Positions 109 through 28,755 of a DNA stretch of 43,350 nucleotides are shown piece after piece (position 1 is the stretch's first letter; the number at the start of each line of letters is the position of its first letter). Below the pieces are notes generated by a model that worked only from the letters and a program-made list of their open reading frames with translations, had not been told where the DNA came from and did not search any database. Source of the stretch: Thermoanaerobaculia bacterium (GTDB lineage Bacteria > Acidobacteriota > Thermoanaerobaculia > Gp7-AA8); NCBI GenBank assembly GCA_051953135.1, contig JBQCJC010000419.1, forward strand, positions 1 through 43,350, written 5' to 3'. Both the position numbers and the translations under genes were made by a program.

Positions 109-137
109 ACCACGCTCCTGCTAGCATCGCGACCTCG

Positions 138-881: not shown

Positions 882-891
882 CGGGTCCGAC

Positions 892-1620
892 TTACGGTTC
901 CTGAATTCGCAGTGAATACTTCGCCAAGGGAGTCGCTTCTTCGGAGCCGAAAAGCGCCAGTTCGTAATCACCGACTTCGTACTTGTCCGTAAAAACCTCG
1001 ATCGGATACGAACCATCGGCGGCGCGCCTGATCCCGCTCCGATTCCAAACCTCATCGCGAGAACCATCCGCGCTCAACACATACAACACGAATCGCGCTT
1101 CCGCCTGTCCGGACTCCGGCCGGTACAACGGCTTCAATAAATATCGCGTATTCGGGAAGAGCACAGCAGGTGGTCCGAAGGATTCGCCGCGCGTCGCGGT
1201 GTCGGCAAACAGCACCTTTTGTACGACCGGGCGGGAAGCCTGCCGAGCGCGTTGCGTCCACACATATCCAGCAATGCTCAGTGCGATCAGAAAACTCGCG
1301 GCAATCGGCAACCATATTCCGATCCTGCGCATCGGAACCACAACCGCCTCTTCGCCCACACGTTCCCGAATTTTCGCAATGTCTGCCTGAACGTCCGCAT
1401 CCGACAACTGGCCGTCGTCGTTCGCGGGAAACGGCGTCGTCATTACATGCGCCAGTTCGGGGTAATACGACAGGCGTTCGCGAACCTCATCCGCGTCCTC
1501 TTCATTCAGATCACCGCGCATCAACGCGTCGACTTCATCGAACGTCGGCGGGATCACTTCGCGACGACGTTCCTCGCGACGTTTGTGTACAGCAGCATCC
1601 AGATCCGATTTGGTAATCAT
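892..1620 (-). CDS. Putative single-pass membrane anti-sigma factor (partner of the ECF sigma)
   Basis: ORF 892..1623. Its start (GTG 1623 or ATG 1620) overlaps the sigma-factor stop (GTGATG). It has a charged N-terminal cytoplasmic region, one TM segment (IGIWLPIAASFLIALSIAGYVW) and an extracytoplasmic C-terminal domain. There is no HxxxCxxC zinc motif, so the assignment rests on position and topology. Confidence 0.5.
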   Translation of the reverse strand: MITKSDLDAAVHKRREERRREVIPPTFDEVDALMRGDLNEEDADEVRERLSYYPELAHVMTTPFPANDDGQLSDADVQADIAKIRERVGEEAVVVPMRRIGIWLPIAASFLIALSIAGYVWTQRARQASRPVVQKVLFADTATRGESFGPPAVLFPNTRYLLKPLYRPESGQAEARFVLYVLSADGSRDEVWNRSGIRRAADGSYPIEVFTDKYEVGDYELALFGSEEATPLAKYSLRIQEP

Positions 1621-2171
1621 CACTCCTCCCCCGGTCCTTCAGGGATCTCTGGTAATCCCTCGAGGCCGTCGTCCAGCAACTCCTTCAGCCGGTTCCGTCC
1701 GGCGTGGAGCCGCGATTTCACCGCAGAGATCGAAATGTGCAGAAGGTCACCGATCTCTTTAATTGAGAGGTCATCGACATAGAAATATTCGATACAGAAC
1801 CTTTGCCTTGGATCGAGCCGATCGAGCGCACCGCGGATAAGACGTCGGGTTTCATCCCGACGAAGAATGTCCGCCGGGCCTGGGTCTTTCGACGGTAAAT
1901 CGACGAGCACGGATTCCGAGACTTCCGTTCCGCTTCGTTTCGCAGCGCCTTGATCGCGACGAAAGTTGTACGCGAGGCGACGAGCGATTTGCTCGAGGTA
2001 ATTCCATTTCGCTTCGCCACGATAGTCATCCTTGCTCTTAAGGACACGAACAAAGACGTCCTGGGCCACATCCCGCGCCGCGTCCCCAAGCCCGAGCTGA
2101 CGCAGAAAAGTCAGCAATTTTGGGTAATACCGGGTCAATACCTCGAGACGTTCGTCTTCGCCGTTGGCCAT
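1620..2171 (-). CDS. ECF-type RNA polymerase sigma factor (sigma-70 family group 4)
   Basis: 183 aa. Region 2-like DVAQDVFVRVLKSKDDYRGEAKWNYLEQIARRLAYNFRRD. Region 4 HTH DPRQRFCIEYFYVDDLSIKEIGDLLHISISAVKSRLHAGRNRLKELL. AGGA lies upstream of the ATG. Confidence 0.9.
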   Translation of the reverse strand: MANGEDERLEVLTRYYPKLLTFLRQLGLGDAARDVAQDVFVRVLKSKDDYRGEAKWNYLEQIARRLAYNFRRDQGAAKRSGTEVSESVLVDLPSKDPGPADILRRDETRRLIRGALDRLDPRQRFCIEYFYVDDLSIKEIGDLLHISISAVKSRLHAGRNRLKELLDDGLEGLPEIPEGPGEE

Positions 2172-2236
2172 TGCGTTCCTATATCATTAACTAACTCATT
2201 CGTCCGGTAAACAGTTGCACCTTTGCGGAGAGAGGT
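2172..2236. promoter_or_regulatory. Divergent intergenic region between the ECF sigma gene and the TPR-CHAT gene; promoters presumed
   Basis: 65-bp spacer, locally AT-rich (tatatcattaactaactcatt) in a GC-rich window. It ends with the RBS GGAGAGAGG upstream of the 2237/2240 start. I could not identify a convincing -35/-10 or ECF GGAAC...CGTC pair by eye. Confidence 0.3.
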
Positions 2237-5200
2237 GTGATGCACAATTCCTTAACGCCTGGGTTCCGGCGAACGGTCATCCTTTCGCTGGCCGCAGGCC
2301 TGCTCACAATGCATTGCGAACGCGAGCGAGCGATCGCGCCGAGTTCCAGCGAAGATGCAAAGCCCCCGGAGGTCCTGCGCGTCACAGAGGCACGACTGTC
2401 CGGCTTTGGTATCTGGCACCAATGCACCGCCGTCGCGCGGAAAGACGCGCTCATCGCTTCCGTCTCCTGTGGCCCGGCAACCATTCCCCCTGATCTGGTG
2501 TCGATACCGGACGGTGGATGCAATCGGCCCATGAAGACGATGATCGACGCTGTGCGACAGCTCGCCTATGTGCCTGCATGCACAGACAAAGCGATTGCGA
2601 AACTGGAATCACTGGCGCTTCCCAATCGCGACGCCGCGGCATTGAGCAACCTGTCTGCCGCGTACTACGTTCGCGCTCAACGGACGGATCAACCAGCCGA
2701 CATCGTGCGCGCCCACGACGCGGCATTGGTTGCGACAGAGATCGCACCGTCAATGCCAGAGGCGGTCTTCAATCGTGCACTGGTCGAAGAAGCGCTTGGG
2801 TTTGTTCCAGACGCGATTGCATCGTGGGACAGTCTGCGCAAAAGCCCAATTGACGACGGCTGGGCCAAAGAAGCCCGCTCGCACTGGGCGCGGCTGACGA
2901 AAGAACAAACGATCGCTCGCGCCATGGCCTGGCCACTTCACGAACAGCGATTACCGGAGCTCGCACGCGCCCACGATCGAAACGCAATCCGGCTATTGAT
3001 TCAGCCGTATCAGGATGCTGCACAACGGCTCGTCGAAGAAACGATCCTCACCGAGTGGGCGAAGGCAGCATTGACGGGTGACGAGAAAACGGCCAGTGAC
3101 CGTCTCGTAATTGCCGCGGAAATCGCCGCCGCGCATCAACAACTGGCGCACGACAACTATTTGCTGGACGCGGTCAATGTCGCGAAGAACACGACCGATC
3201 CCGTCAAACGCGCGGCCTTGATTCGCGGACACATCGCATTCAGCGAGGGCCGTGTAATCGAGAGAACGTTTCAAGCGAATGCGGCCGAGAAATTCGTCAG
3301 GGCCGAGGCACAGCTGGCAATCGCCGGCAGTCCCGTGAGACTGAAGGCGATGATCGTGCGCGCATCGTCGTTGCTCGTCAGCGGCAAGTCCGACGAAGCG
3401 ACGGCGCTGCTGAAGCGCGTTGCGCGCGAAGCAGAGCACCGGCATTACAAAACTTTGCTTGGGCGCGTACACGCCGGCTACGGCCTGGCTGCGACGCTGC
3501 AGAGTCGCTGGCTCGACGCGCTGGTTTCCTATTCGAAAGCCGAATCGTTCTTCGAGGACGCACAGGACAACGAAAACGTCACCAATGCGCTCAGTCGCAA
3601 AATCGGCGTGCTTCGGTTCATCGGCAATCACTCGCTGACATGGCGCGAGGTCTTTCGTGCCCGAAGTGGCGCACGCGCACTCGCCGATCCGCAGTCTCGC
3701 CACTTCTTCCTCGGTGAGAGCGCGTTGTGCGCACTGGAGCTCGGCTACCCGCGTGTCGCACTGCGTTATCAAAACTCTGCGGTGACGCTACTGGAGAACG
3801 AGCTTGCCGCGCATGGCAATGATGAGGCCCTTGTTCCACGATTGCGCGGCAATCTCAGCATCGCCCTTCGCGGGCGCGCCGCAATTCATGCGCATCTTGG
3901 AAACAACAAAGATGCCGAAGAAGACCTTCGAGGCGCATTTCATCGAATCGAGGCGGATATGCCGCTCGAGGATGCCTCGATCCTGAACGGGTTTCGCGCG
4001 CGACTTTCCGAGGTTCGGGCTCAAACGCTTGCGCCATCGGATCGCCAGGCGGCCATCGGCGCCTTGACGCAGGGGATTGGCTTTGCGTCCAAAACACATT
4101 TCCGATCCATGCGGGCATCGCTCCTCGTTCAACGCGCGCGCCTTTACCGGCTTGCGCATGAACGCGACAAGGAACTGATCGACCTGCGCAACGCGCTGGA
4201 CGAGTTACAACAGGAAGAGATGGCCGCGGTCACCAGCTCCGCCGCCAAAAAAGGCGCGCTTCCTACTGAAAAGATGTGGTCCTCGTACTTCGCGCGTTAT
4301 CAGGATTCGTATCGGCAGGTCATTCAGGCACTCATTGAAAACGGCGACGATCGCTCGGCATTCGATTATGCAGAACGGGCACGCGCGTTCGAGCCCTTGC
4401 ATCTGATTCTGAGTCGCAACGACGTGCCGGTGGATTTTCGCAGGCGCATTCACAATGGAAAACCGTTCAGCATTGGCGATGTCGAAGAGATCCTGCCGGC
4501 CAACACCTTTCTGCTGCAGTACAGCGTGCTCGAAGAGCACACGTACGTATGGATCGTGTGGAACGGCGACTTCGTACGCACGACGCTGCCGATCGGCAAT
4601 GAAGCAATCGGCCGATGGACCACGGCTCTGCAGCAATTCGCGTTTCATCGTGATGCCGAGAGTTTCGCCGCGGCACTGAATGCGCCTTATGACGCGTTGC
4701 TGAGAGAACCGCTCGCGCGCGTGGCCAAGCTCAGGAAGCGCGGTACGGTCCCGAAAGTCGTCATCGTTCCGGACCGGATGATGCACGGGCTGCCGTTTTC
4801 CGCTTTGCGTGATGGAACCCGGCACGTCGTTCAGGATTTCTCTGTTTCGGTCGAAGCGAGTGCCACTCTGTACGCTTATTCAAAAGCGCTCAATGACGCG
4901 CGAACGTCGATGCAACCACAATCGGCGTTACTGGTCGCCGATCCCGCGTTCGATCCTGCACTCGAATTGACGCAAAAACTCGATCGCCTGCCATTCGCAC
5001 GGGACGAGGCATCGAGAATCGCCGCACTGTACGAATCGGAACTGGACGTCCATCCTTTGCCCGATACGGATGCGACGATCCCTGAATTTCTCCGGCTCGC
5101 GCATGACAGCGCGATCGTTCACATCGCCGCGCACGGCGTGGCCAATCCCGATACTCCTTCGAGCTCATTTCTCCTGTTTGCGCCGGATGAACAAAATACC

Positions 5201-5584
5201 GGCGTTCTGGAGGCGGTGCGACTGCTGCAGGATCTGCGGCTGACACAGGCCCGGCTCGTCGTCGTTGCAGCATGCAGCAGCGCGGCGGGTACACCAGTCG
5301 GTCCGGAAGGCGTCGCACCAATCGTTCGTCCGCTGATTGCAGCCGGTGCACCCGGCGTAGTCGGCACATTGTGGAACGTCAGTGAGAATCCGGCTACGGC
5401 CGAGCTGCTGATCCGCTTCCACCGCCATTATCGCGACGGTATGGATGCCGATGACGCATTGCGTCAGACACAACGGGACATGCTCGAGGATCCGGACCTC
5501 GCGCGTAGCTCCGTCATCGTCTGGGCGCCGTTCCAGTTCATCGGCTTTGCGTCCTCGCCGTTCGCGAAAGACACAAGGAGATGA
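2237..5584 (+). CDS. TPR-repeat / CHAT-domain protein (caspase-fold protease), N-terminal signal or anchor
   Basis: 1115 aa, GTG 2237 or ATG 2240 after GGAGAGAGG. N-terminus RRTVILSLAAGLLTM is hydrophobic. The long helical repeat region is TPR-like. C-terminal CHAT motifs: KVVIVPDRMMHGLPFSAL, LLVADPAF, VHIAAHG (His), LVVVAACSSA (Cys), GAPGVVGTLWNVSE. Confidence 0.88.
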   Translation: MMHNSLTPGFRRTVILSLAAGLLTMHCERERAIAPSSSEDAKPPEVLRVTEARLSGFGIWHQCTAVARKDALIASVSCGPATIPPDLVSIPDGGCNRPMKTMIDAVRQLAYVPACTDKAIAKLESLALPNRDAAALSNLSAAYYVRAQRTDQPADIVRAHDAALVATEIAPSMPEAVFNRALVEEALGFVPDAIASWDSLRKSPIDDGWAKEARSHWARLTKEQTIARAMAWPLHEQRLPELARAHDRNAIRLLIQPYQDAAQRLVEETILTEWAKAALTGDEKTASDRLVIAAEIAAAHQQLAHDNYLLDAVNVAKNTTDPVKRAALIRGHIAFSEGRVIERTFQANAAEKFVRAEAQLAIAGSPVRLKAMIVRASSLLVSGKSDEATALLKRVAREAEHRHYKTLLGRVHAGYGLAATLQSRWLDALVSYSKAESFFEDAQDNENVTNALSRKIGVLRFIGNHSLTWREVFRARSGARALADPQSRHFFLGESALCALELGYPRVALRYQNSAVTLLENELAAHGNDEALVPRLRGNLSIALRGRAAIHAHLGNNKDAEEDLRGAFHRIEADMPLEDASILNGFRARLSEVRAQTLAPSDRQAAIGALTQGIGFASKTHFRSMRASLLVQRARLYRLAHERDKELIDLRNALDELQQEEMAAVTSSAAKKGALPTEKMWSSYFARYQDSYRQVIQALIENGDDRSAFDYAERARAFEPLHLILSRNDVPVDFRRRIHNGKPFSIGDVEEILPANTFLLQYSVLEEHTYVWIVWNGDFVRTTLPIGNEAIGRWTTALQQFAFHRDAESFAAALNAPYDALLREPLARVAKLRKRGTVPKVVIVPDRMMHGLPFSALRDGTRHVVQDFSVSVEASATLYAYSKALNDARTSMQPQSALLVADPAFDPALELTQKLDRLPFARDEASRIAALYESELDVHPLPDTDATIPEFLRLAHDSAIVHIAAHGVANPDTPSSSFLLFAPDEQNTGVLEAVRLLQDLRLTQARLVVVAACSSAAGTPVGPEGVAPIVRPLIAAGAPGVVGTLWNVSENPATAELLIRFHRHYRDGMDADDALRQTQRDMLEDPDLARSSVIVWAPFQFIGFASSPFAKDTRR

Positions 5585-5587
5585 GGA

Positions 5588-6658
5588 ATGGAATTCATAC
5601 TGAGGATTTTCTTCAGCGGCTTGATCTCGTTCGTTCCGAGCGCCGACGGCAAAGAGCTCACCGTATTGATGATCAAGACCCCGCACACGTACAAGATGGC
5701 CGACGGTTCAGATCTCGCCCATCACCGGCCGCTGTTTCTTGCTCGTTCGTCAAAATTTAAAGACACCTGCCGCGAAGACGACTACAGCTCAATCGCACAA
5801 TATCTTTACAGCAACAAAACGCCGCGCGACGCGTTCAATGCCCTCAATGGCGCGCTCCTCGGCGGTGCCGCATGGGAACTCGCCGACGCGGAACTGCATG
5901 TAGTCGGCCCGGAAGATCCGCTGGCGATCCGCATGGGCGCGCGCGGACGAGATGCGAATGGCGCGCTGCATCGCGTTCCGACGACACCGGAAGAACGCGA
6001 AGACTTCACCTGGGTCGCCGATATGACCGAGCTCGCGCCATCAACGCAAGGCTTCAAATCGTCTCTTACCGGAACTTCCGATCCGGGAGACCTCGTCGCC
6101 GCGCGTCTGAAGCTGACGAGCGGTGAAGTTCTCACGTATTCGATCGTGAAGGTCGATCAAATGGCGCGGCCCATCTATTTCCGCCAGCCCTCGGGCGCAG
6201 GTCCGGATGCGCCATATTCACAAGCAGTTGCGACGTGGGTCGAAGCAAAGATCCGCGTGCCGGGAAGTTCATTGGAGATCGTCGACAAGAACATTCACGA
6301 CGGCACATACCGCCGCAAGATGTCTCTTACGCCGGTCAATGGCGTTGTCGAAATCGCGCTACTGAATTTGCCACCACTCACGCCTCCGGATCCTGAAGCC
6401 GTGACCGCGGCCCCGCTGCCTGGACAGCATTTTCAGATCTACTACGACCTCACCAAAACACCGCCCGCACAATCCGCGCGCCTCGTGCCACACCTGCCGC
6501 TCCAGGCCGTTCCATCCGATCCGGAACAGGAATGGGGCACCCTGCATGTGCGCACGTCGAACCTGTGGTACTCGAATCTGCTCGAGATGCTCGGCCTCAA
6601 TCCACGCGGGAAAAAAGGCCCATACGAAATTGCGCTCTGTCCGATCACGAGGGAATGA
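5588..6658 (+). CDS. Hypothetical protein, translationally coupled to the CHAT gene
   Basis: 356 aa. ATG lies 3 nt after the CHAT stop, with AAGGAG upstream. Hydrophobic N-terminus (ILRIFFSGLISFVPSA). I recognise no family motif. Confidence 0.6.
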   Translation: MEFILRIFFSGLISFVPSADGKELTVLMIKTPHTYKMADGSDLAHHRPLFLARSSKFKDTCREDDYSSIAQYLYSNKTPRDAFNALNGALLGGAAWELADAELHVVGPEDPLAIRMGARGRDANGALHRVPTTPEEREDFTWVADMTELAPSTQGFKSSLTGTSDPGDLVAARLKLTSGEVLTYSIVKVDQMARPIYFRQPSGAGPDAPYSQAVATWVEAKIRVPGSSLEIVDKNIHDGTYRRKMSLTPVNGVVEIALLNLPPLTPPDPEAVTAAPLPGQHFQIYYDLTKTPPAQSARLVPHLPLQAVPSDPEQEWGTLHVRTSNLWYSNLLEMLGLNPRGKKGPYEIALCPITRE

Positions 6659-6668
6659 CACCATTGAT

Positions 6669-6706
6669 AATGACGGCCTGCGCGGCGCAGGCCGTCATTT
6701 CTTTCG
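6669..6706. terminator. Perfect 15+15 nt palindrome followed by a T-rich run; probable (bidirectional) intrinsic terminator between convergent genes
   Basis: AATGACGGCCTGCGC-G-GCGCAGGCCGTCATT (6669..6699) followed by TCTTTC. It starts 11 nt after the stop of 5588..6658. Its right arm overlaps the stop codon (6695..6697) of the minus-strand caspase gene. Confidence 0.7.
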
Positions 6707-8560
6707 CTCCACGAGGTAATAACTCGCTTCCTTCGAAACACCATCACTCAGGGCGTGCTGTCTTGGATGGCCGTCGAAATCGAGATAGAACACATTTCCG
6801 GACCGGCACCAGACCGAGATTTCTCTGCGGCCGTTCTGCTCGACAATATTCAGACGATCAATGATCTGTCGCGCCGGAAGAATGATCCCGTACCAGAGCT
6901 CTGTGCCTCGCTGAATTCCGGCCGCGTAAGGCGGCGCTTCACCCGCCACGTGTTTCGGATCGAGAGCAAAAACGGCGTCGACATAGCCATCCATTTTCAA
7001 CGGACCACGAAGATCATTATTGACAGCAGCCACGATGATGCGCGGATCGGCACTATCCGTCGGTGCACCAATGACGAGGCGGTGCATGTGTCCCGGGTGC
7101 CAGTACGACGCAAGCAGCTTACCGGTGTAATCGAAAATCGTCAGGCGGGACGGATACCATCCTTCCGCGTCGATTGATAACGCGACGATCTCGCGCTTCC
7201 CGGTACGAAACAGATCGCCGGTTGCCATCGCGAGGATGGCCATCTGGCCAGCGCGCGATCGGTCGTAAACGGATTCTCCAGCGGTATCACGCGTCCATCG
7301 CAGTCGTCCCGCGGCATCGAATACGAACAAGTGCCCTGCATCCGCACCATCACCAGCGACAGCGAGAACGATTTCCGGCTTCCCGTCACCATCCAGATCC
7401 GACAGTTCGGCGTGTTGTAGTTGTCCTCGCACGATACCGCCCCACAATGGGACGCCGGCGGCATTGAAAACCTGAAATCCATTGCCTTCCTTCTCGACGC
7501 GCGCGACATCCATCCGCGAGATCGTGTCCATGTGAGCAATGAGCGCCTGCAACTGAGCCATTACGCGAGTGATCTGCAATGCCATCGATGAGGAATCACT
7601 TCCACAAACCGCAAGAGGCATGGCCCGGCCATCCTGATCCGTAGTGACCTGGATACCTGCTTTGACCGCGCCGTCTTTGTGCTTTCGCACCCACGTAAGA
7701 ACACGTTGATTGACGAAATCAGCCAGCGATTCCACGGTAATCAAGCCGCGAGCGTCGGTATCCGCGGCGCATCGCAAACCGTCCAGCATCGCCGCGGTAA
7801 AAACACCGTTCTTTCGCTCATCGTCGTCGAACGCAAAAGAGCCCTGTGCGGCCGCATAAAACGTCGCGTTTCCATGCGCCTTCCCTAACGCCGTCAACAG
7901 CGGCGCCGCGGAGTCAGGATCGGCTGTCGTCGCACGAGCACGTGCGCTGATCCGGCTCCGGCATGTGTCCAGAAGAATCAGCGAGCGTGATGCATCGGAG
8001 GTCGTGACGATATCGAAGATCTTACTGATCGACACCGCGGTCTCGTGATGCTGCAGCAGTGAGCTGGATGCGAGCGCGAACGGCTCGCCATCAACACTGA
8101 AGCCGTGCGTCGCAATACCGACAATGAAAATGCCGTTCCGGCCGGCGCGCCGGGACTGACGGTCCAGCAGCGAAAGAATGTCTGGTTGCTCCGCCGGCTT
8201 GATTTCAGCGCCCGCCGCCCGCAACGCCTCGAGCCTTTGTTGTGACTCCGCCTTCCGAGGATCACCGGATAGTGCAAGAGCCACGCGCTGCGGGATTACC
8301 AGCGATGGGGTGCGCCCGAGCGCAACCTCGTACGCAAGGTCGATCGCATCATCCACCGCATAGCGCACCTCTGTCAGGTCCGGATCATGTGTAAAGCGGC
8401 GAACACCTACAAACAACGCGGCCGATTGAGAAGGATCGTGAACTCCTCCGATTTCCTCCGCAGATTCCGGAAGCGCCGCCGAGCGCACTCCTTGCGCATG
8501 ACTCGGAAGTTCGGCAGCCAGCCAGAGAACAAACGCGAATCGCCGCAAAAACACTCGCAT
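6695..8560 (-). CDS. Secreted caspase-family (peptidase C14) protein with C-terminal FG-GAP/VCBS-like repeats
   Basis: ORF 6695..8629, trimmed to ATG 8560 (GGAGAGAG 6 nt upstream). This gives the signal peptide MRVFLRRFAFVLWLAAELPSHA. Caspase dyad contexts: IFIVGIATHGF (His) and LILLDTCRS (Cys). C-terminal repeats include DLDGDGKPEIVLAVAGDG and ATGDLFRTGKREIVALS. Confidence 0.82.
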   Translation of the reverse strand: MRVFLRRFAFVLWLAAELPSHAQGVRSAALPESAEEIGGVHDPSQSAALFVGVRRFTHDPDLTEVRYAVDDAIDLAYEVALGRTPSLVIPQRVALALSGDPRKAESQQRLEALRAAGAEIKPAEQPDILSLLDRQSRRAGRNGIFIVGIATHGFSVDGEPFALASSSLLQHHETAVSISKIFDIVTTSDASRSLILLDTCRSRISARARATTADPDSAAPLLTALGKAHGNATFYAAAQGSFAFDDDERKNGVFTAAMLDGLRCAADTDARGLITVESLADFVNQRVLTWVRKHKDGAVKAGIQVTTDQDGRAMPLAVCGSDSSSMALQITRVMAQLQALIAHMDTISRMDVARVEKEGNGFQVFNAAGVPLWGGIVRGQLQHAELSDLDGDGKPEIVLAVAGDGADAGHLFVFDAAGRLRWTRDTAGESVYDRSRAGQMAILAMATGDLFRTGKREIVALSIDAEGWYPSRLTIFDYTGKLLASYWHPGHMHRLVIGAPTDSADPRIIVAAVNNDLRGPLKMDGYVDAVFALDPKHVAGEAPPYAAGIQRGTELWYGIILPARQIIDRLNIVEQNGRREISVWCRSGNVFYLDFDGHPRQHALSDGVSKEASYYLVERKK

Positions 8561-8644
8561 GACAACTCTCTCCGTTTCTCTCGTGTCATTACCCATGTCG
8601 CTAAAGACACGAAACGCACCCCGGGACATTGAAGAGAGGTCGAG
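8561..8644. promoter_or_regulatory. Divergent intergenic region between the two caspase genes; presumed promoter of the long plus-strand gene run
   Basis: 84-bp spacer with an RBS on both sides (GGAGAGAG on the minus strand; GAAGAGAGG for ATG 8645). It contains the inverted repeat CGTGTC...GACACG. No promoter hexamers are confidently assignable. Confidence 0.3.
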
Positions 8645-10888
8645 ATGATCGGCCGATTGCGAAGGTTGGCGTTCGCCGTCGTGGCAGTATTGCTAACGAG
8701 TGCAATTTGCGCGGACGAGCCGCACAAACGCGCGTTGCTAATCGGAATTAACGATTATTCGGCTACACGTCTGCGAGGCACGAAAAAATCCTCACCTCCT
8801 GATCGCTCGTGGTCGAATCTCGACGGTTCGGTCAATGACGTCCGAATGATGCGCGAGATTCTCGTCGCTCGTTTCGGATTCGCCGATGCCGACATCCTGA
8901 CGCTAACGGACCAGAGCGCGACACGCGCCGCAATCACCAACGCGATCCAGTCGCAGCTCATCCAGCGCTCACGAAAAGGCGACATCGCTTTCTTTTATTA
9001 TTCAGGGCACGGCTCGCAGGTGCGTAACTCGGCATCCGCGGAAGACGACAAGCTGGACGAGTCGTTCGTTCCTGCCGATTCGCGCAATGACGAGCAGGAC
9101 CTGCGTGACAACGAACTTCGCGACTTCTTCAATCGCATTCTGGATCGCGGGGCGCGGCTCACCGTGGTCTTTGATGCCTGCCACAGTGGCTCTGGTGCGC
9201 GCGGCCTCAATGGAGGATTAAAGCAACGCAGCGTCAATCCCGACCTACGCGATGTCGCCGATCCTTCTGTCGCACCGAGTCCGGAAGATCGGGGAGCGTT
9301 AATTCTTAGCGCAACTCAGGATTTTGATCAGGCATACGAAACCATCGATTCCGAAGGCCGGATTCGCGGCGCGTTTTCCTGGGCTCTTGCTCGCGCAATT
9401 CGCGACTCACAACCTGGCGAACCCGCGAGCGACACGTTCATTCGCGCACAAGCGCACCTGCGCGCGGAAATGCCCGCGCAGGTCCCGGTGCTCGCCGGAA
9501 ATGTGGAAGCTCGGCTTAGTCCGTTTCTCTCATTGAACACACGACGCGGCGCAAATCCGCATACGCCGTCTGTGGCAATTGAGAAGGCTTTGCCCGATGG
9601 AAGCTACCTTCTCGTCGGCGGCTGGGTAAACGGTCTAACGGTCGGCAGTCGCTTGCGCGTATCAGGATCAGCACCTGTAGAGCTCGAGGTCACGTCGCTC
9701 ATCGGCGCATCACGCGCCACTGCGCGACTGACAACGGCCGTGCGTAGCGCGCTCCCTTCCGGGGCGCTTCTGGAAATCGTCGAATGGGCCGCGCCTCCAT
9801 CGACAAAACTGCGAATCTGGATTCCCACCGCTCCCGATCTCGAAGTCGCGACCGCGGTGAATTTGCGTCGCATCCTGAAAACACCTGGCGTGCGGTGGGT
9901 TGACGATCCCACGGAGACAACACCGACGCATCTTCTGCGCTGGCGGCAGCAAGCATGGGAACGCGTGGCATTCGGATCGATTGTGAAATCGAAATCCGCG
10001 CTCAGTGATCCGTTTCCGCGCGACAGTACGGTATTTATTCAGTTGCCGGCGACGATTGCGCTCGCAAGCGAATTCGACGATGTCGAGGGTGTCGAGCTCG
10101 TTGACGGGCCACAAACGGCCGAATACATCCTCGCGGGCCGGGTCAGGAATCGAGAAGCCGAGTACGCGTGGATTCGTCCGCGCGCGCTTGGCCGGGATCG
10201 CGAAGGCAGCGCCATGCCGGCCCGTAGTGAATGGGTCGCGGCAAATCAATCGACGACCGCCCTCGTCCTTCGCAATGACCTGCGCCGCATCCGGCGCGTG
10301 CACGCGTGGCACGACCTCCCATCACCACCGCCTGAACATTTATCCCACTACACGGCAGAAATTCGCGATGCTGAAACGCACGAGCTGGTGACGAACGGCC
10401 CGCTCATCGCACCGAAGACGTATCAAGTAGTGCTGCGACTCCGCTCCCCTGTACCGCTCGATCCACTGTATCCCCGTTATTACTACGTGTTCATGATCGA
10501 CAGTTACGGAAAGGGGGTTCTCCTTTTTCCGAAACGCGAGCGCGGCTCTGTTGAAAACCGGCTGCCACAAACGCGAGTCGCGTCACAACCGCTCGCGGAA
10601 CCGCCCGGAGAAATCCCCTTAGGCTCTCCCGCCACTTTCTTCGTTACCGAACCATACGGCCTGGACGCCTACTTTGTGCTGTCGACTGACGAAGCACTGT
10701 CGAGCACAGACAGTCTCGAATGGGATGGAGTGCGCAGCGCACGCGCGGCTCCACAGAGCGCGCTGGAGCAACTCTTATCCGAATCGTTACACGGGGGGCG
10801 AGGCGGAGAACCAATCCGAATGCCACCGACCTGGTCGATCGAAAAAATCATCGTCGAATCAATGGCGCCGAGGAGAAATCGACAATGA
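8645..10888 (+). CDS. Secreted caspase-family (peptidase C14) protein with long C-terminal extension (DUF4384-like segment)
   Basis: 747 aa. Signal peptide MIGRLRRLAFAVVAVLLTSAICA. ALLIGINDYS; FFYYSGHGS (His122, nt 9008..9010); VVFDACHSGSGARG (Cys179, nt 9179..9181). Near the C-terminus, YYYVFMIDSYGKGVLLFP resembles the DUF4384 signature often fused to caspases (from memory). Confidence 0.88.
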   Translation: MIGRLRRLAFAVVAVLLTSAICADEPHKRALLIGINDYSATRLRGTKKSSPPDRSWSNLDGSVNDVRMMREILVARFGFADADILTLTDQSATRAAITNAIQSQLIQRSRKGDIAFFYYSGHGSQVRNSASAEDDKLDESFVPADSRNDEQDLRDNELRDFFNRILDRGARLTVVFDACHSGSGARGLNGGLKQRSVNPDLRDVADPSVAPSPEDRGALILSATQDFDQAYETIDSEGRIRGAFSWALARAIRDSQPGEPASDTFIRAQAHLRAEMPAQVPVLAGNVEARLSPFLSLNTRRGANPHTPSVAIEKALPDGSYLLVGGWVNGLTVGSRLRVSGSAPVELEVTSLIGASRATARLTTAVRSALPSGALLEIVEWAAPPSTKLRIWIPTAPDLEVATAVNLRRILKTPGVRWVDDPTETTPTHLLRWRQQAWERVAFGSIVKSKSALSDPFPRDSTVFIQLPATIALASEFDDVEGVELVDGPQTAEYILAGRVRNREAEYAWIRPRALGRDREGSAMPARSEWVAANQSTTALVLRNDLRRIRRVHAWHDLPSPPPEHLSHYTAEIRDAETHELVTNGPLIAPKTYQVVLRLRSPVPLDPLYPRYYYVFMIDSYGKGVLLFPKRERGSVENRLPQTRVASQPLAEPPGEIPLGSPATFFVTEPYGLDAYFVLSTDEALSSTDSLEWDGVRSARAAPQSALEQLLSESLHGGRGGEPIRMPPTWSIEKIIVESMAPRRNRQ

Positions 10889-13800
10889 GATGGATCCGTT
10901 GTCTGATCGCTACCCTGTTATGTCTTCCCACGATCGTTCGTGCAGACGAAGCATTCGAGAACATTACGAAAATGATCGCCGCTGGGCGAGCATTGGAAGC
11001 ACGGCAGATGCTCGCCAGCACGCTCGATTCATATGTGACCGCTCACGACGAAACGAAAGAGGCGGTCACTCTTGTACTCCTCGGGCTTACAGACGCATCG
11101 CTGCACAATGTAGAGGCGGCTCGCAACGAGTTACAAGACGCGAGCAAGAAATTCATCGCGCATCGTGACTACATGGGCGCGTGGTTTTCTCTATTCGCGC
11201 TTTCGACGGTGGAATACAACGAAGGACGCACCGATCGCGCACTGGAGATTCATAAGCAAGTCATCCAATTGCTCGATGAAGCCGAGCGTCCTGAGGCATC
11301 GTTCAAACTCGACTCGCTGGCCATGCTGGCGCCGGCATTTGGCGCCGACCCGTCATCACTGTCAATGATGACCTCGGCCCCTGAAATCGTGAAACCGTTG
11401 ATGCTCCGGTTTCTGATCATTGCGTCGTCTGACGCGTATGGAGCAGCTCTGATCGAGCACGGCGATCTCGACGCCGCGGAAGAACAACTCACTCGCGCTG
11501 CCGATGCCGCATTGATGTTCGGCGGATTATTCGACGGAACGGTCTATACGCATCTCGGGGCATTAAGACAGAGTCAATGGCGACTTCAGGAAGCAAAGGA
11601 GTGCTACCTCAAGGCTCTCAAAGGCGCCAAAACCATGGGCGCGATATTTACACCAACGATTGCCGGCCGTTTCGATCCATTTTTCGAAGTCAATGTCATG
11701 ACTGACCTCGCGACCCTCGAGGTCCTGACCGGACATCTGGATGAGGCACTGGCATGGAATGACAAGGCATTACAGGCCACTCGGGCGATGTCTAACCCAA
11801 AACGCGAAACGGCACTGCTCGAAAAGCGCGCAGACCTGCTGTCAAACGGCGGTCAATACGACGCGGCCTTGACGCTTTACCAGGAAGTACTGGAGCTCGC
11901 GACCAAAAGTGACGACCTTTATCGCCAAGGCTCCGTTCGAGGCAGCCTGGGTGCCGTGTGCATGTACCTCGGCAATTACGGTAGTGCTACGAAACACTTC
12001 GAGAAATCGATCGAGATCTATCAAAAACTCAAAGAGCCATTTCTCGAAGCGCCAAGCTGGATCGCGCTCGCCGAAACGTATCTCGCACTGGAAGACCATG
12101 GCAACGTTCAGAACGCGCTCGACAACGCGCGCAAAATGGCCGCGCAGAGCGGATTCGGTGCGGCCGCTGCACTGGTGGACGTAATCGCGGCATCGAAAGA
12201 TGTACACGAAGGACGCGGAACACTCGAAGACGTCGATACGACCATGCGCGCGATGATCAACCGACCGGACCTGAAGTCCTACGCACTGAGTCAGGGGATG
12301 CGCGACTTCCTGGCGAATATGTCGACGATCGGGAGTCGCGGCGGCGAAATCAAAGTCCCCGAACAAATGAGGTCCCTCTTCGCGCCGATGGCCGCCGCAT
12401 TCCAGGGAAAAGCGGCCTTACAACGAGGCGAGTACGCCAAGGCGCGAAAACTCTTCGAAGACGGATTCGCAACAAGCTCGAGTCACGATCACCGCGCGGG
12501 CCTGCAGGCTCTCGTTGGAACTGCCTACTGGCTCGAAGGAAAACCCGATGATGCAATCGCAGCGCTTCGCAAAGCCGCCGATGAGCTCGAACAATCTGCA
12601 TTCGATGTGAAGGTCGAGGAGCTGCTGGCAGGGTATCTGGGCAGCAATCGTCGCGTCTATTACGACCTGCTTCTGGAAATGCTTTCCAGACAAGGTAAGG
12701 GCGACGATGCATTCGCGCAGGCCGAACGCGCACGCGCACGCGCGTTTCTGCAATTGATCGGCAATCACCGCCTCAACCCCAATCGCAGTGCCGATCCGCA
12801 ACTCGTCGCCGAAGCGGAAAACGTGCGTGCCGGCATTGTCGACAGAGAAAACGCAATCGCCGCGGCGCGGCCAGAAGCACTAAAGCGTCTCAACGAGGAT
12901 CTCTCGCGCGCACGTCAGCATTATCGGTCGCTTACGATTCGCGCGAAGGCCACAAGCTCCGAATACGCCGACGTGATTAACGTCGCGCCGGTCGAGATCC
13001 AAACCATTCGCCTCGACTTGCCGGAAGATACGACCCTCATCAGCTATTACGTTTCACCCACTGCCGTTCATGCCTGGGTTGTCGACCGCGAGTCGGCGAA
13101 TTACGCGCGGCTTCAGATCGATACAAACAGCCTCCGCAGAATCGCTTGCTGGGCGAATTCATTCGGCGCCAACGAATCTCGTGGAGCGTCAGCAATTCCC
13201 TGCGGCGAGAGTAACGGCAACCCAGCGGATTTCGCGTATGACGCTTTGATTGCACCGCTTCATAAACACATCCGTCATCAGAAACTGGTCATTGTGCCGC
13301 ACGGCGTCCTTCATTACGTGCCATTCGCCGCAATGCACAATTCGAGCAGCAATCACTATCTCGTGCAGGACTTCACGCTGACCTATGCGCCGAGTGCGAG
13401 TGCGCTGCGGTTCCTTCGCGCGAAAGAAACGCCAGTCCGGGGAACCGCGCTCGTCCTGGGAGATCCGACCACGCCGATCTCAGGACTTAAACCTCTATCC
13501 GGTGCACGACAGGAAGCCGCCTTTGTCGCCAACCTGCTCGGCACGTCGGCTTACGTCGGAAACGACGCCCGTGAGAATAAACTCTACGGCGTCGGCGGTA
13601 ACGTGGACCTCGTGCATATCGCAGCACATGGGATTTATGACCCGGTGAATCCGCTATTCAGCCGAATTGCGCTGGCCCCGGGCGATAAAACGGACGGCAG
13701 CCTCACTGTGCACGAGATCCTCTCATCCGTTGATTTGTCGGGGGTGAATCTCGTAGTGCTGTCCGCCTGTCGCAGCGCGGTCGGCGAACGCAGCGGCGGC

Positions 13801-14082
13801 GACGAAATCGTCGGCCTGACGCGTGCGCTCTTATATGCCGGAACACCGGGCGTCATTTCCACGCTGTGGAACATCGATGACGCGGCCTCCGCGGGGCTCA
13901 TGAATGAGTTCTATCGCCGGCTCACAAGCGGAGTTTCCGTCGCCGAGGCACTGCGCGCGGCTCAGGTGAGCGTTCTCGAGAGCAAGGATTTTTCGGATCC
14001 GAAGTATTGGGCCGCCTTCACGCTCAATGGGGATCCACAAGGTCGCTGGCATCGCGCCGATGCCACAGGCAACAACGAATAA
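10885..14082 (+). CDS. Secreted TPR-repeat / CHAT-domain protein
   Basis: ORF 10720..14082, trimmed to ATG 10885 (ATGA overlap with the preceding stop). This gives the signal peptide MRWIRCLIATLLCLPTIVRA. Many TPR-like helical repeats. CHAT motifs: KLVIVPHGVLHYVPFAAM, ALVLGDP, LVHIAAHG (His), LVVLSACRSA (Cys), GTPGVISTLWNIDD. Confidence 0.88.
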   Translation: MRWIRCLIATLLCLPTIVRADEAFENITKMIAAGRALEARQMLASTLDSYVTAHDETKEAVTLVLLGLTDASLHNVEAARNELQDASKKFIAHRDYMGAWFSLFALSTVEYNEGRTDRALEIHKQVIQLLDEAERPEASFKLDSLAMLAPAFGADPSSLSMMTSAPEIVKPLMLRFLIIASSDAYGAALIEHGDLDAAEEQLTRAADAALMFGGLFDGTVYTHLGALRQSQWRLQEAKECYLKALKGAKTMGAIFTPTIAGRFDPFFEVNVMTDLATLEVLTGHLDEALAWNDKALQATRAMSNPKRETALLEKRADLLSNGGQYDAALTLYQEVLELATKSDDLYRQGSVRGSLGAVCMYLGNYGSATKHFEKSIEIYQKLKEPFLEAPSWIALAETYLALEDHGNVQNALDNARKMAAQSGFGAAAALVDVIAASKDVHEGRGTLEDVDTTMRAMINRPDLKSYALSQGMRDFLANMSTIGSRGGEIKVPEQMRSLFAPMAAAFQGKAALQRGEYAKARKLFEDGFATSSSHDHRAGLQALVGTAYWLEGKPDDAIAALRKAADELEQSAFDVKVEELLAGYLGSNRRVYYDLLLEMLSRQGKGDDAFAQAERARARAFLQLIGNHRLNPNRSADPQLVAEAENVRAGIVDRENAIAAARPEALKRLNEDLSRARQHYRSLTIRAKATSSEYADVINVAPVEIQTIRLDLPEDTTLISYYVSPTAVHAWVVDRESANYARLQIDTNSLRRIACWANSFGANESRGASAIPCGESNGNPADFAYDALIAPLHKHIRHQKLVIVPHGVLHYVPFAAMHNSSSNHYLVQDFTLTYAPSASALRFLRAKETPVRGTALVLGDPTTPISGLKPLSGARQEAAFVANLLGTSAYVGNDARENKLYGVGGNVDLVHIAAHGIYDPVNPLFSRIALAPGDKTDGSLTVHEILSSVDLSGVNLVVLSACRSAVGERSGGDEIVGLTRALLYAGTPGVISTLWNIDDAASAGLMNEFYRRLTSGVSVAEALRAAQVSVLESKDFSDPKYWAAFTLNGDPQGRWHRADATGNNE

Positions 14083-14653: not shown

Positions 14654-14680
14654 CGCGACCGTCGCAGGTCATTTCGTGTC

Positions 14681-16111: not shown

Positions 16112-16121
16112 GCCGGCTGCC

Positions 16122-17846: not shown

Positions 17847-17856
17847 GAGCGTCTCA

Positions 17857-25274: not shown

Positions 25275-25286
25275 CGGAGAACGAGC

Positions 25287-28327: not shown

Positions 28328-28349
28328 ATTACACGGAAAGGAGCTCTCC

Positions 28350-28730: not shown

Positions 28731-28755
28731 TCACAACGATGGTCAGGGAGAACCG

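Follow-up and report, generated by a model that had tools for sequence, protein, structure and literature searches.

The question raised by this locus is what four caspase-fold proteases with predicted export signals do beside an ECF sigma factor and its putative anti-sigma, and whether they act on the sigma pair or are its output. The window, i.e., the whole stretch of DNA analyzed, comprises 43,350 nt of contig JBQCJC010000419.1 from a Thermoanaerobaculia bacterium, and the span under study covers positions 892-14082. A first-pass annotation had described four caspase-fold proteins (two CHAT and two C14) beside an ECF sigma pair; these genes were all recovered where it had placed them, together with a fifth conserved gene within the span, X356, that it had overlooked. 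The features are the following:

892-1623 (-), anti-sigma candidate
1620-2171 (-), ECF sigma, 183 aa
2176..2212 (no strand), conserved DNA block in the sigma/CHAT1 divergent region
2237-5584 (+), CHAT1, 1115 aa
5588-6658 (+), X356, 356 aa
6695-8560 (-), CaspE; the longest ORF extends to 8629
8563..8587 (+), ECF-like promoter element before C14, CAAC-N15-CGTGTC / ACAAC-N15-CGTGTC
8606..8612 (-), TCGTGTC before CaspE, divergent partner of the C14 element
8645-10888 (+), C14, with a Pfam C14 domain
10885-14082 (+), CHAT2, sharing 4 nt with the C14 gene (start/stop overlap)
14657..14680 (+), promoter-like element before the vWA gene, GAC-N15-CGTGTC, beyond the span
16103..16126 (+), promoter-like element before the Ser/Thr kinase gene, AAAC-N14-CGTGTC, beyond the span
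14060..34513 (+), further same-strand cluster genes, placed by Pfam, transmembrane (TM) and signal features

Conservation and Extent of the Module

None of the ~20 related loci examined, all from Thermoanaerobaculia/Acidobacteriota hosts, lacks the anti-sigma candidate, sigma, CHAT1 or X356, and these four genes make up an invariant core. C14 is mostly present and CHAT2 frequently, and the caspase-fold/CHAT paralogs number from one to four per locus. Distant loci, with X356 at 44-47% identity, keep the four-gene core and lack CHAT2 and the vWA cluster. CaspE had been taken as a fixed member but is accessory and occupies a variable slot, being intact only in the window and in L013; L017 holds a CaspE-like fragment at another position, and the slot is otherwise filled by a ZnR-TM2 gene (L009, L010, L012, L015) or a short caspase (L019, L022).

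The region does not end at 14082, where the earlier annotation had closed the cluster; it heads a ~33-kb cluster that runs on, physically and by a shared promoter element, into vWA, kinase, Hsp70, tubulin-like (FtsZl1) and trypsin genes. Downstream, a coiled-coil lipoprotein is followed by an exported vWA protein that has a TM helix at its C terminus, and then by a TM Ser/Thr kinase, a Gly-zipper protein and a ZnR-DUF1573-Hsp70 protein. After several unknowns come Tubulin_2 (FtsZl1), which bears a double zinc ribbon, a trypsin-like protease and a last unknown. Pfam matches on this one strand, beyond the span, include Tubulin_2 (4e-63), VWA (1e-9) and Pkinase (2e-46), which places the downstream part among the vWA/FtsZl1 operons as these are outlined in passages of Makarova and Koonin (2010). 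In other species synteny is kept through Hsp70, and vWA plus kinase synteny occurs in 8/8 close loci with enough downstream sequence; L021 shows an independent, rearranged linkage (vWA-Tubulin_2-vWA beside the core). L019 and L022 have the sigma/CHAT/X356/C14 module by itself; neither vWA nor tubulin genes lie within 10 kb of it.

Two systems treated in passages of Kaur et al. (2020) were considered for the cluster and rejected. A DO-GTPase/GAP1 conflict system, which has one or two TRAFAC DO-GTPases together with GAP1, would not match, as no Walker A motif was found in any cluster protein and no such Pfam match was obtained. For the EACC1-caspase two-gene system, in which a single-TM EACC1 gene lies 5' of a caspase fusion, NF047832 scored 58 and 49 bits (cutoff 140), there was no upstream EACC1-like gene, and the caspases have predicted signal peptides instead.

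The best reading of the region is a conserved module of soil Acidobacteria that forms the regulatory and sensory head of an envelope-associated Thermoanaerobaculia system.

The Caspase-Fold Proteases

The His/Cys dyads reported earlier hold: all four quoted motifs were found, and the residues are intact in all four proteins and invariant in every ortholog checked. CHAT1 matched Pfam CHAT at 6e-54 (183.8 bits, cutoff 24), with catalytic H966 at 5132-5134 and C1013 at 5273-5275, in register with H585/C627 of Sb-Csx29 in the alignment and unchanged in 13/13 orthologs. Its profile matched designed TPR (3e-6), separase (1.5e-4) and Csx29 chains in the PDB, and no chain described as anti-sigma. CHAT2 matched CHAT at 1e-69 (235.2 bits, cutoff 24), with H915 at 13627-13629 and C962 at 13768-13770, and the Csx29 model at 1.4e-14.

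C14 matched Pfam C14 at 6e-24 (85.5 bits, cutoff 21.4) and the PADLOC caspase model at 1.8e-25; its catalytic residues are H122 (9008-9010) and C179 (9179-9181). The best PDB sequence matches were metacaspases (5e-19), with alignment to AtMC9, AtMC4, Yca1 and TbMCA2; in the AtMC9 alignment SGHG and DACHSG are both matched, and the Cys falls on the mutated C147 position. C14 is thus classed as a predicted exported metacaspase/orthocaspase-like protease, and the metacaspase identity of its nearest solved relatives suggests that it may have proteolytic activity with Arg/Lys specificity. Metacaspase activation requires processing or Ca2+.

CaspE combines a C14-type caspase domain, whose H152 and C200 are encoded at 8105-8107 and 7961-7963, respectively, with an FG-GAP-like beta-propeller C-terminal to it. 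The window protein itself had no Pfam C14 match; among its relatives, 15/18 did, and H152, D198 and C200 are invariant. A profile match to MALT1 (3e-3), an hhalign match to C14 (E = 9.5e-4, H on H and C on C) and an NCBIfam NF047832 match under its cutoff (7e-16) were also obtained, so that its assignment as a C14-type peptidase is supported at the family level only.

The sensor or adaptor parts proposed earlier were borne out to different degrees. TPR repeats are clear in CHAT2 (TPR_12, 4e-25) but degenerate in CHAT1, where the window protein gave no significant match and TPR_9 and TPR_2 were detected in 7/16 and 4/16 orthologs, respectively. The C-terminal extension of C14 (~460 aa) ends in a DUF4384 domain, which scores 0.095 in the window protein and is present in 10/12 orthologs (best 1.4e-6), and FG-GAP is sub-threshold in CaspE, with FG-GAP_3 in 7/18 relatives.

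Export was predicted with a heuristic combined with conservation in orthologs. Orthologs of C14 (11/11), CHAT2 (10/10) and CaspE (2/2) show a basic n-region together with an h-region and a site of AXA type, and heuristic scores were low for the cytoplasmic controls (sigma, kinase and Hsp70). In CHAT1, an invariant Cys directly follows the h-region in 14/14 orthologs, and the signal looks like a lipoprotein type whose lipobox is non-canonical (LLTMH|C in the window protein); conserved Cys pairs occur as well (C94 and C114 are invariant). The signal-peptide-like N-termini noted earlier on all four proteases are therefore predicted export signals conserved in orthologs, and these, with the CHAT1 Cys pairs, make the extracytoplasmic location that had been proposed for all four likely.

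X356, a Conserved Protein of the Core

X356 starts 3 nt past the CHAT1 stop, and no other member of the module is as well conserved, its orthologs being 54-64% identical. Its family comprises 163 clusters, none with a Pfam domain, and every taxon-named match belongs to Thermoanaerobaculia or Acidobacteriota. The AF2 model is of high confidence (pLDDT 93.3, pTM 0.93) and had no Foldseek match at E <= 1e-3 in PDB or BFVD. X356 is without a signal peptide, residues 2-17 forming core strands of the model; it thus appears to be cytoplasmic, whereas CHAT1 is predicted to be exported, and this tight gene coupling counts against the best reading. An operon of a gasdermin with a protease was also considered and rejected: the X356 model has no PDB neighbor at E <= 1e-3 and no Pfam match, and no gasdermin match was found in other window proteins.

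The Sigma Factor and Its Putative Anti-Sigma

The 183-aa sigma matched Sigma70_r2 (PF04542) and r4_2 (PF08281) in Pfam and TIGR02937 in NCBIfam (90.2 bits, cutoff 42.9), matches that assign it to the ECF (group IV) sigma-70 factors; no equivalog-level NCBIfam match reached its cutoff. By Pfam annotation it is the sole DNA-binding protein found in the cluster, and its orthologs (41-48% identity) retain the same neighbors. Its stop codon overlaps the start codon of the anti-sigma candidate (GAGGAGTGATG), whose gene adjoins sigma in every locus examined, and a single TM helix is predicted in the product, in agreement with the co-translated single-pass partner described earlier.

The candidate (242-243 aa) is predicted to begin with a helical cytoplasmic part, to cross the membrane once, through a TM helix at about residues 101-122 (101-119 in the membership check), and to end in a periplasmic Ig-like beta-sandwich of ~115 aa. 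In the AF2 model this C-terminal domain has a pLDDT of 80-89 and the four short N-terminal helices are of low confidence (49-72); Foldseek returned generic Ig-like matches alone (~1e-5) for the ectodomain. No Pfam or NCBIfam match was obtained even at E = 10, and no PDB sequence match. Given the stop/start overlap, the single-pass topology and the gene context, the product of 892-1623 is regarded as a putative anti-sigma. The zinc-binding (ZAS) class was rejected for it because the protein has no Cys at all, and hence no HxxxCxxC, and no detectable anti-sigma domain.

Two Distinct Classes of Conserved Upstream DNA

The search for ECF-type promoters upstream of 2237 and 8645, which the first-pass annotation had proposed, was run comparatively and gave opposite outcomes at the two positions. 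Before C14 (8645), CGTGTC lies <=80 nt upstream of the start in 13/13 loci with AC 14-15 nt further 5', an arrangement expected by chance at ~0.03 per locus. In its general form, [A/C/G]AC-N14-15-CGTGTC, the element precedes C14, vWA, the Ser/Thr kinase and the slot gene. In 11 loci CGTGTC stands 8-12 nt from start codons devoid of a Shine-Dalgarno sequence, a spacing that would suit the -10 element of an mRNA with a short leader or none. The TCGTGTC at 8606..8612 is 45 nt upstream of the CaspE start, and the same divergent arrangement is found with CaspE in L013 and with the ZnR-TM2 gene or the short caspase in the loci listed above for each. The vWA element ends 9 nt before the likely GTG start (14690) and is conserved in L010, L012 and L016 (GGTGTC in L013 and L017); the kinase element, upstream of the likely start at 16152, is conserved in L009 and L012 (GGTGTC or AGTGTC in L010, L015 and L017).

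The element before C14 fits control of the C14-CHAT2 operon by the sigma factor. The AAC-to-CGT spacing of 14-15 nt is below the 16-17 nt typical of ECF promoters. An AAC/CGT-type element is found before C14, vWA and the kinase and none before the sigma gene itself; autoregulation is frequent among ECF sigmas.

Upstream of the CHAT1 start (2237), no CGTGTC element was found. The sigma/CHAT1 divergent region (65 bp) holds a different conserved block of about 45 nt (2176..2212), TTCCTATATCAT-N6-AACTCATTC-N3-CGGTAAAC, which is unlike the CGTGTC element, occurs as a single copy in the window, and is kept at the nucleotide level in 14 loci though the flanking proteins are 40-55% identical. With no CGTGTC element and a separate block in common with sigma, CHAT1 looks less like an ordinary target than like a gene expressed together with sigma and anti-sigma. 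This makes it a better candidate for the input, as a protease that acts on the anti-sigma, than for the output.

Relation to Known Systems

DdvA, an anti-sigma that carries a TPR-CHAT in the periplasm, was proposed to be its own site-1 protease (PMC11506125). The module resembles DdvA/DdvS in that an ECF sigma is encoded together with an anti-sigma, here a putative one, that crosses the membrane once, and with a TPR-CHAT that is periplasmic, here by prediction, and has a His-Cys dyad; the CHAT is proposed to start anti-sigma proteolysis. However, DdvA fuses ZASD, TM helix and TPR-CHAT, whereas CHAT1 (1115 aa) and the anti-sigma (243 aa) are separate genes on opposite strands; this and the missing zinc motif led to rejection of a DdvA-type anti-sigma. 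The anti-sigma here has a small Ig-like ectodomain, C14, CHAT paralogs and X356 are additional, the neighbors are vWA/kinase/Hsp70/FtsZl1 genes and not CBASS or CRISPR, and the host is an Acidobacteriota and not a Myxococcota.

In type III-E Craspase (Cas7-11/Csx29, Csx30/Csx31, CASP-sigma), a TPR-CHAT is likewise linked to an ECF-like sigma and an inhibitor: Csx29 cleaves the inhibitor and the freed sigma acts on promoters of its own locus (PMC10028731). CHAT1 and CHAT2 both align to the Csx29 dyad. In contrast to Craspase, the module has no cas genes and no RNA-guided activation, its proteases are predicted to be exported rather than cytoplasmic, and the inhibitor would be a membrane anti-sigma. 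Identity with type III-E Craspase was rejected, since no cas-related domain occurs in any window ORF and the Csx29 model scored 53.9 bits against a cutoff of 300.

A biochemical precedent for a CHAT-to-C14 cascade is SAVED-CHAT, which cleaves and thereby activates PCaspase; the same operon encodes, in addition, a sigma factor, a kinase and a small uncharacterized protein, and a likeness of PCi to the CI-2 inhibitor family was drawn by the authors (bioRxiv 10.1101/2023.06.23.546230). This system, from the type III-B locus of Haliangium ochraceum, shares with the module a CHAT, a C14 caspase, a sigma factor, a Ser/Thr kinase and a small uncharacterized protein. SAVED-CHAT/PCaspase is cytoplasmic, senses cOA through SAVED and is CRISPR/CBASS-linked, whereas the sensor parts here are TPR, DUF4384 and a propeller on proteins with predicted export signals.

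Passages in Makarova and Koonin (2010; PMC2875224) and in Kaur et al. (2020; PMC7159879) describe how vWA, kinase and tubulin-like genes occur together, and both treat thresholding by peptidases. The cluster resembles the vWA/FtsZl1 operons and systems of these passages in its exported vWA, Ser/Thr kinase, Hsp70-domain, Tubulin_2 and trypsin-like peptidase proteins, most of them membrane-associated. It differs from the Kaur systems in the absence of DO-GTPase and GAP1 (no P-loop), and the ECF sigma/anti-sigma/CHAT/X356 head is not described in these passages.

Proposed Mechanism and Alternative Explanations

On these comparisons, the module may be an extracytoplasmic, split-polypeptide analogue of Craspase/Csx30/CASP-sigma and DdvA/DdvS whose sigma drives further proteases and the downstream module, a suggestion with the odds somewhat against it. 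A bolder form of this suggestion, with a probability of about 0.3, is a periplasmic caspase switch in which the CHAT1 lipoprotein, alone or via a CHAT-to-C14 step, would be the dedicated site-1 protease of a separate ECF anti-sigma, and the freed sigma would launch an AAC-N14-15-CGTGTC regulon of more caspase-fold proteases and the vWA/kinase/Hsp70/tubulin-like machine. In the mechanism favored here, at the odds first given, CHAT1 would be made with sigma and anti-sigma from a common control region and would sense a periplasmic protein signal via its helical-repeat part. It may then cut, possibly with C14, the periplasmic or juxtamembrane part of the anti-sigma (site-1 cleavage), after which intramembrane proteolysis would release sigma. 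Sigma would fire the CGTGTC promoters, giving more C14-CHAT2 and CaspE (amplification, possibly with CHAT-to-C14 activation), and would also turn on the downstream membrane module. This is the signaling direction that we infer. Counted for this mechanism were the CGTGTC elements of C14, vWA, kinase and slot genes, the position of CGTGTC close to starts without a Shine-Dalgarno sequence, the invariant core, the invariant dyads, the conserved export signals, the sigma as sole DNA-binding protein found in the cluster, the separate control block of CHAT1, and the Craspase, DdvA and SAVED-CHAT precedents. Counted against it were the anti-sigma assignment by context only, the low confidence of its modeled N-terminal part, the 14-15 nt spacing, the lack of an element before sigma, the absence of anti-sigma chains from the PDB matches of the CHAT1 profile, and the lack of a site-2 protease gene within the window.

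The first-pass annotation had pictured the reverse: envelope stress would reach the anti-sigma by another route, and sigma would induce all proteases as pure outputs, forming a zymogen cascade between paralogs on envelope targets. The ECF-like element before C14-CHAT2 and CaspE, the predicted export signals on all proteases, the SAVED-CHAT precedent and the metacaspases as nearest solved relatives of C14 agree with this. CHAT1 does not fit, since the sole never-missing protease lacks the element and has its own control block in common with sigma, and a fixed cascade would hardly agree with a paralog number that varies from one locus to another between one and four; this explanation is doubtful, and roles in a cascade and in envelope stress are putative.

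It is less probable still that the proteases are processing or effector parts of the vWA/kinase/Hsp70/FtsZl1 system, a conflict or membrane-remodeling machine of the kind described by Makarova and Koonin (2010) and Kaur et al. (2020), in which they would serve the maturation or release of envelope proteins, the exported vWA among them, while the sigma pair merely sets expression. The vWA and kinase synteny in 8/8 close loci, the rearranged linkage in L021, the shared promoter element and the association and thresholding themes in the passages of PMC2875224 and PMC7159879 speak for it; the stand-alone modules of L019 and L022 and the absence of DO-GTPase P-loops from the cluster speak against it. 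Exported prokaryotic metacaspases are common (PMC3501461) and the CaspE family is very large (4053 representative clusters), as would be expected of ordinary secreted proteases, for nutrition or surface-protein turnover, lying by chance beside an unrelated ECF pair. This is very improbable in view of the gene order with sigma/anti-sigma, invariant over ~20 loci, the conserved cis elements, the stop/start overlaps, which imply translational coupling, and the TPR, DUF4384 and propeller adaptors, which suggest specific partners.

Implications

That CHAT/caspase-type proteases release ECF-like sigmas has emerged only recently as a theme of bacterial immunity. Craspase (2022) and SAVED-CHAT/PCaspase act in the cytoplasm and are experimentally shown, and DdvA (2024) is periplasmic with a protease role that is proposed only. 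The module would put this protease logic outside the cytoplasmic membrane, split over several polypeptides, in a poorly studied phylum, and ties it to the long-unexplained FtsZl1/vWA operons. It offers a candidate promoter motif, a variable set of sensor-like protease paralogs and the conserved X356. Should the proteases be plain outputs, a clean ECF regulon of exported caspase-fold enzymes would still stand. If the bolder periplasmic caspase switch is true, the Craspase and SAVED-CHAT/PCaspase immune pathways, which are cytoplasmic, would have in this module their first multi-protease counterpart outside the cytoplasm, and X356 would be a new partner in it, regulatory or effector, without a known structural relative.

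Gene content and conservation of the module

The region 892-14082 carries seven genes according to the ORF listing and translation, one of which (X356) was absent from the first-pass annotation.

Genes of the region 892-14082 (window coordinates)
892-1623, minus strand: anti-sigma candidate, single-pass membrane protein, 243 aa
1620-2171, minus strand: ECF sigma factor, 183 aa, Sigma70_r2 and r4_2
2237-5584, plus strand: CHAT1, CHAT-domain protease, 1115 aa, Pfam CHAT 6e-54
5588-6658, plus strand: X356, protein without known structural relative, 356 aa
6695-8560, minus strand: CaspE, C14-type caspase protein, 621 aa
8645-10888, plus strand: C14, C14-type caspase protein, 747 aa, Peptidase_C14 6e-24
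10885-14082, plus strand: CHAT2, CHAT-domain protease, 1065 aa, Pfam CHAT 1e-69

The sigma factor matches the ECF superfamily model with a score above its cutoff, and the proposal that it is co-translated with a single-pass partner holds, its stop codon overlapping the start of the membrane protein gene. The presence of an anti-sigma in the window argues against membership of the sigma in ECF54.

Related loci were gathered from the contigs of sigma homologs, by scanning a genome collection with the X356 alignment, and from the contigs of distant X356 homologs. About 20 distinct loci were obtained, the named ones all belonging to Thermoanaerobaculia or Acidobacteriota MAGs; contig JACZCU010005006.1 of GCA_015665125.1 is ~99% identical to the window. 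A metagenome scan with the single downstream protein u474 returned the window's own contig only, this being a one-sequence query; an alignment query would have had a longer reach. As mapped by tblastn, the anti-sigma and sigma genes diverge from CHAT1, which is followed by X356, a variable opposite-strand gene, C14 and CHAT2, and then by genes for a coiled-coil lipoprotein, a vWA protein, a Ser/Thr kinase, a Gly-zipper protein, an unknown and an Hsp70 protein. Compared with the window proteins, the orthologous sigma factors are 41-48% identical, the CHAT1 proteins 41-56%, the X356 proteins 54-64% (the highest conservation in the module), the C14 proteins 48-55% and the CHAT2 proteins 40-49%.

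Anti-sigma, sigma, CHAT1 and X356 occur in every locus; C14 is missing from L021, and CHAT2 from L010, L019, L021 and L022. In L019 and L022 the module stops after C14 and unrelated genes follow, and in L021 the core adjoins vWA-Tubulin_2-vWA in an order unlike that of the window. By gene arrangement, the sigma/CHAT/X356 core is therefore an autonomous unit that has been linked to vWA/tubulin-like genes repeatedly, though not always, L021 being a case of independent linkage. There, the vWA, Tubulin_2 and vWA genes (1-5416) lie immediately upstream of anti-sigma/sigma/CHAT/X356, and a 549-aa multi-TM protein, possibly with a beta-propeller, is carried instead of C14. A second C14 and CHAT2 pair upstream of the anti-sigma gene in L016 (2-2506) and L017 (2-5160) indicates a duplication of this protease pair.

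Between X356 and C14 lies a slot whose gene runs on the opposite strand in every case and encodes CaspE, a 322-aa C14 protein or a Zn-ribbon/TM2 protein. CaspE is intact only in the window and L013, and a CaspE-like fragment lies at another position in L017. The Zn-ribbon and TM2 protein (~110 aa) sits on the opposite strand in a ~470-bp X356/C14 gap of L009, L010, L012 and L015, and there too a CGTGTC element stands in front of the slot gene.

Example of a Zn-ribbon/TM2 slot gene
L009, X356/C14 gap 6455-6914, minus strand: Zn-ribbon/TM2 gene with a CGTGTC element (ECF-like promoter motif) in front

Catalytic residues and adaptor domains of the four proteases

The His/Cys dyad contexts initially read in all four proteases are in register with characterized or related enzymes. 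H585 and C627 of Csx29 align residue for residue with IAAHG and AACSS of CHAT1, and Arabidopsis metacaspase-9 can be aligned to C14, whose Cys falls on the catalytic Cys position mutated in the crystal constructs. CaspE itself has no Pfam C14 match, and its match to the NCBIfam model caspase_w_EACC1 (7e-16) is below that model's cutoff; a Pfam C14 match is present in 15 of 18 CaspE relatives, and profile-profile alignment with the C14 orthologs places ATHG on SGHG and DTCRS on DACHSG (E = 9.5e-4). The CaspE profile also reaches MALT1 paracaspase at 3e-3. H152, D198 and C200 of CaspE are invariant in the 18 relatives, as are the dyads of CHAT1, CHAT2 and C14 in all orthologs recovered. Since the catalytic residues are aligned and invariant, the four proteases are probably active enzymes. 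Membership in the EACC1 and Craspase systems was rejected in both cases, with scores far under cutoff and partner genes absent.

The proteases had been ascribed distinct sensor or adaptor parts, which was borne out for the strong TPR repeats of CHAT2, for the FG-GAP-like propeller of CaspE (profile match to an FG-GAP propeller, 3e-5) and, at the level of orthologs, for the C-terminal DUF4384 of C14, which scores 0.095 in the window protein and is present in 10/12 orthologs (best 1.4e-6). The TPR array of CHAT1 was found only in degenerate form, visible at family level and by profile.

Export signals

Export signals were judged by comparing N-termini across orthologs for charge, hydrophobic core and -3/-1 sites; cytoplasmic control proteins gave low scores. 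Classical Sec-type signals with AXA-like sites are seen in all orthologs of C14 (11/11), CHAT2 (10/10) and CaspE (2/2). In all 14 CHAT1 proteins a basic n-region is followed by a strong h-region, directly behind which stands an invariant Cys; this suggests a lipoprotein-type signal, the lipobox of the window protein being non-canonical (LLTMH|C). Two further invariant Cys of CHAT1, C94 and C114, would fit an oxidising compartment. Signal-peptide-like N-termini are thus predicted for the four proteases, as previously proposed. Exported prokaryotic metacaspases are common (PMC3501461).

X356 and the anti-sigma candidate

X356 starts 3 nt behind the CHAT1 stop codon. Its N-terminus (MEFILRIFFSGLI...) shows almost no variation, has no basic n-region and, in an AF2 model of high confidence, folds into core beta-strands (pLDDT 97), so that a cleavable signal is probably absent on alignment and model grounds. 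The model, built on 42 sequences, has pLDDT 93.3 and pTM 0.93. The family comprises 163 clusters, none with a Pfam domain, and its taxon-named matches are all Thermoanaerobaculia or Acidobacteriota. A sequence search of X356 against PDB gave nothing significant, and Foldseek searches of the model against PDB and BFVD gave no match at E <= 1e-3 (best PDB 0.06, TM < 0.3). A bacterial gasdermin and a known or solved inhibitor fold were ruled out, there being no structural or profile match. Four His residues (H33, H46, H281 and H320) are invariant or nearly so, and His45 is conserved as well.

The anti-sigma candidate contains no Cys and therefore no zinc motif; it has no family match, and a sequence search against PDB gave nothing significant. 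As the homolog search returned 2 matches only, the AF2 model is built from 3 sequences, and its C-terminal domain alone can be used. In this shallow model four short low-confidence helices at the N-terminus are followed by a TM helix and by a confidently predicted ~115-aa beta-sandwich whose neighbours are generic Ig-like only; in the alignment, a basic juxtamembrane stretch (...G-x-R...RG...) on the outer side is conserved. A domain common to the ectodomain and the C14 C-terminus, which would allow homotypic contact, was rejected (hhalign probability 0.3%). A gene for an Rce1-like (CPBP) intramembrane protease adjoins the anti-sigma gene in two distant loci (L019 4851-5510 and L020 362-1021), whereas the window has no such gene. 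This protease is a candidate for processing the anti-sigma at the membrane level.

Conserved cis elements

The start codons of sigma and CHAT1 are 47-90 bp apart; the spacing of 194 bp in L017 is as called, the sigma start there being probably called too far downstream. Two kinds of conserved element were recognized.

Cis elements of the window
2176-2212: Block 1, ~45 nt, cTTTCCTATATCAT-N6-AACTCATTCAttCGGTAAAc, sigma/CHAT1 intergenic region, conserved at the DNA level in 14 loci
8563-8587: CGTGTC element, [A/C/G]AC-N14-15-CGTGTC, upstream of C14, 13/13 loci
8612-8606, opposite strand: TCGTGTC, 45 nt ahead of the slot gene CaspE
14657-14680: CGTGTC element before the vWA gene, also in several other loci
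16103-16126: CGTGTC element before the kinase gene, also in several other loci

Block 1 has no second copy within the window. Several -10/-35 readings of a canonical promoter are possible in it (e.g. TATCAT on the plus strand), none of them compelling. The GGAAC-N16-17-CGTC pattern anticipated for this sigma is not present as such, and the GGAAC beside the start codon of sigma is the Shine-Dalgarno region of that gene. A scan for the sigma-70 consensus gave fewer sites than shuffled sequence did, and Rfam gave no match.

In its AAC...CGT character the CGTGTC element resembles ECF promoters, whose typical spacer is 1-2 nt longer, and the sigma is the sole recognisable DNA-binding protein in the cluster. 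The hexamer alone is expected by chance ~0.03 times per locus. It ends 8-12 nt upstream of the C14 start in 11 loci, where the start codon lacks a Shine-Dalgarno sequence; L005 (29 nt) and the window (57 nt) have longer intervals, both with a Shine-Dalgarno sequence.

A copy of AAC-N14-15-[C/G]GTGTC lies inside the CHAT1 coding sequence (2476-2502, plus strand), at the same codon position in ~10 other loci; its AAC is formed by codons that differ from locus to locus, and in-frame Met98 and Met101 are downstream. The recurrence may simply follow from conservation of the peptide, or the copy may be an internal promoter from which a signal-less CHAT1 is made. Another TCGTGTC (28603-28609), without AC at the -35 distance, is found in a ~430-bp gene-free gap (28328-28755) upstream of the Tubulin_2 gene.

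Downstream cluster and neighbours

Past 14082 the same strand continues, with short or overlapping gaps, as a gene string spanning 14060-34513.

Genes downstream of the module
14060-34513, plus strand, members of the string:
coiled-coil lipoprotein, plus strand
exported vWA protein with C-terminal anchor, plus strand
transmembrane Ser/Thr kinase, plus strand
Gly-zipper protein, plus strand
Zn-ribbon/DUF1573/Hsp70 protein, plus strand
unknowns, between the Hsp70 protein and Tubulin_2, plus strand
Tubulin_2 (FtsZl1) with double zinc ribbon, plus strand
trypsin-like protease, plus strand
Unrelated neighbours:
34539-35465: DUF6930/DUF7309 protein
35466-36704, minus strand: T6SS Tle1-like phospholipase, 4e-65
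36743-40853, minus strand: HlyD/MFS/OEP efflux pump

Ortholog alignment and the promoter element indicate that the longest-ORF starts of two genes are probably wrong, GTG 14690 (MKFAAALAF...) replacing TTG 14681 for vWA and GTG 16152 (MRAQIGPYEIE...) replacing GTG 16122 for the kinase. The cluster matches the vWA/FtsZl1 operons and the tubulin/HSP70/vWA/kinase themes of Makarova and Koonin (PMC2875224) and Kaur et al. (PMC7159879), respectively; the DO-GTPases that feature in the systems there described are lacking in the window cluster. Assignment of the downstream genes to a DO-GTPase system was ruled out, as they have no P-loop.

A proposed input, relay and output

The module has the same parts as three experimentally studied systems. 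In Craspase, the TPR-CHAT protease Csx29 cuts Csx30, by which an ECF-like sigma is freed to act on promoters of its own locus (PMC10028731); in the anti-sigma DdvA, a periplasmic TPR-CHAT was proposed as its own site-1 protease (PMC11506125); and in a Haliangium ochraceum type III-B locus SAVED-CHAT activates a C14 caspase, the operon also including a sigma factor, a kinase and a small unknown protein (bioRxiv 10.1101/2023.06.23.546230). The present module joins these themes in an extracytoplasmic setting, split among separate polypeptides. CHAT genes near ECF sigmas were noted earlier in ECF54 contexts, which have no anti-sigma, and in DdvA; none of the papers in the collection searched describes the Thermoanaerobaculia module.

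A three-part model is favoured, in which CHAT1, with or without X356, would act on the anti-sigma as input, the sigma would serve as relay, and the other proteases together with the downstream membrane machine would be the output. It is preferred because CHAT1 is the invariant protease and has its control region in common with sigma, and because the ECF-like element stands before C14-CHAT2, CaspE, vWA and the kinase. The main rival is the protease cascade of the first-pass annotation, in which the proteases figure as output only; the two are compatible. The central idea of the three-part model has precedents, and we infer all of its steps that reach past gene content, topology signals and the conservation of cis elements. 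What the module offers is a set of coherent, checkable hypotheses, a candidate motif for a regulon and a protein to which no solved structure is known to be related.
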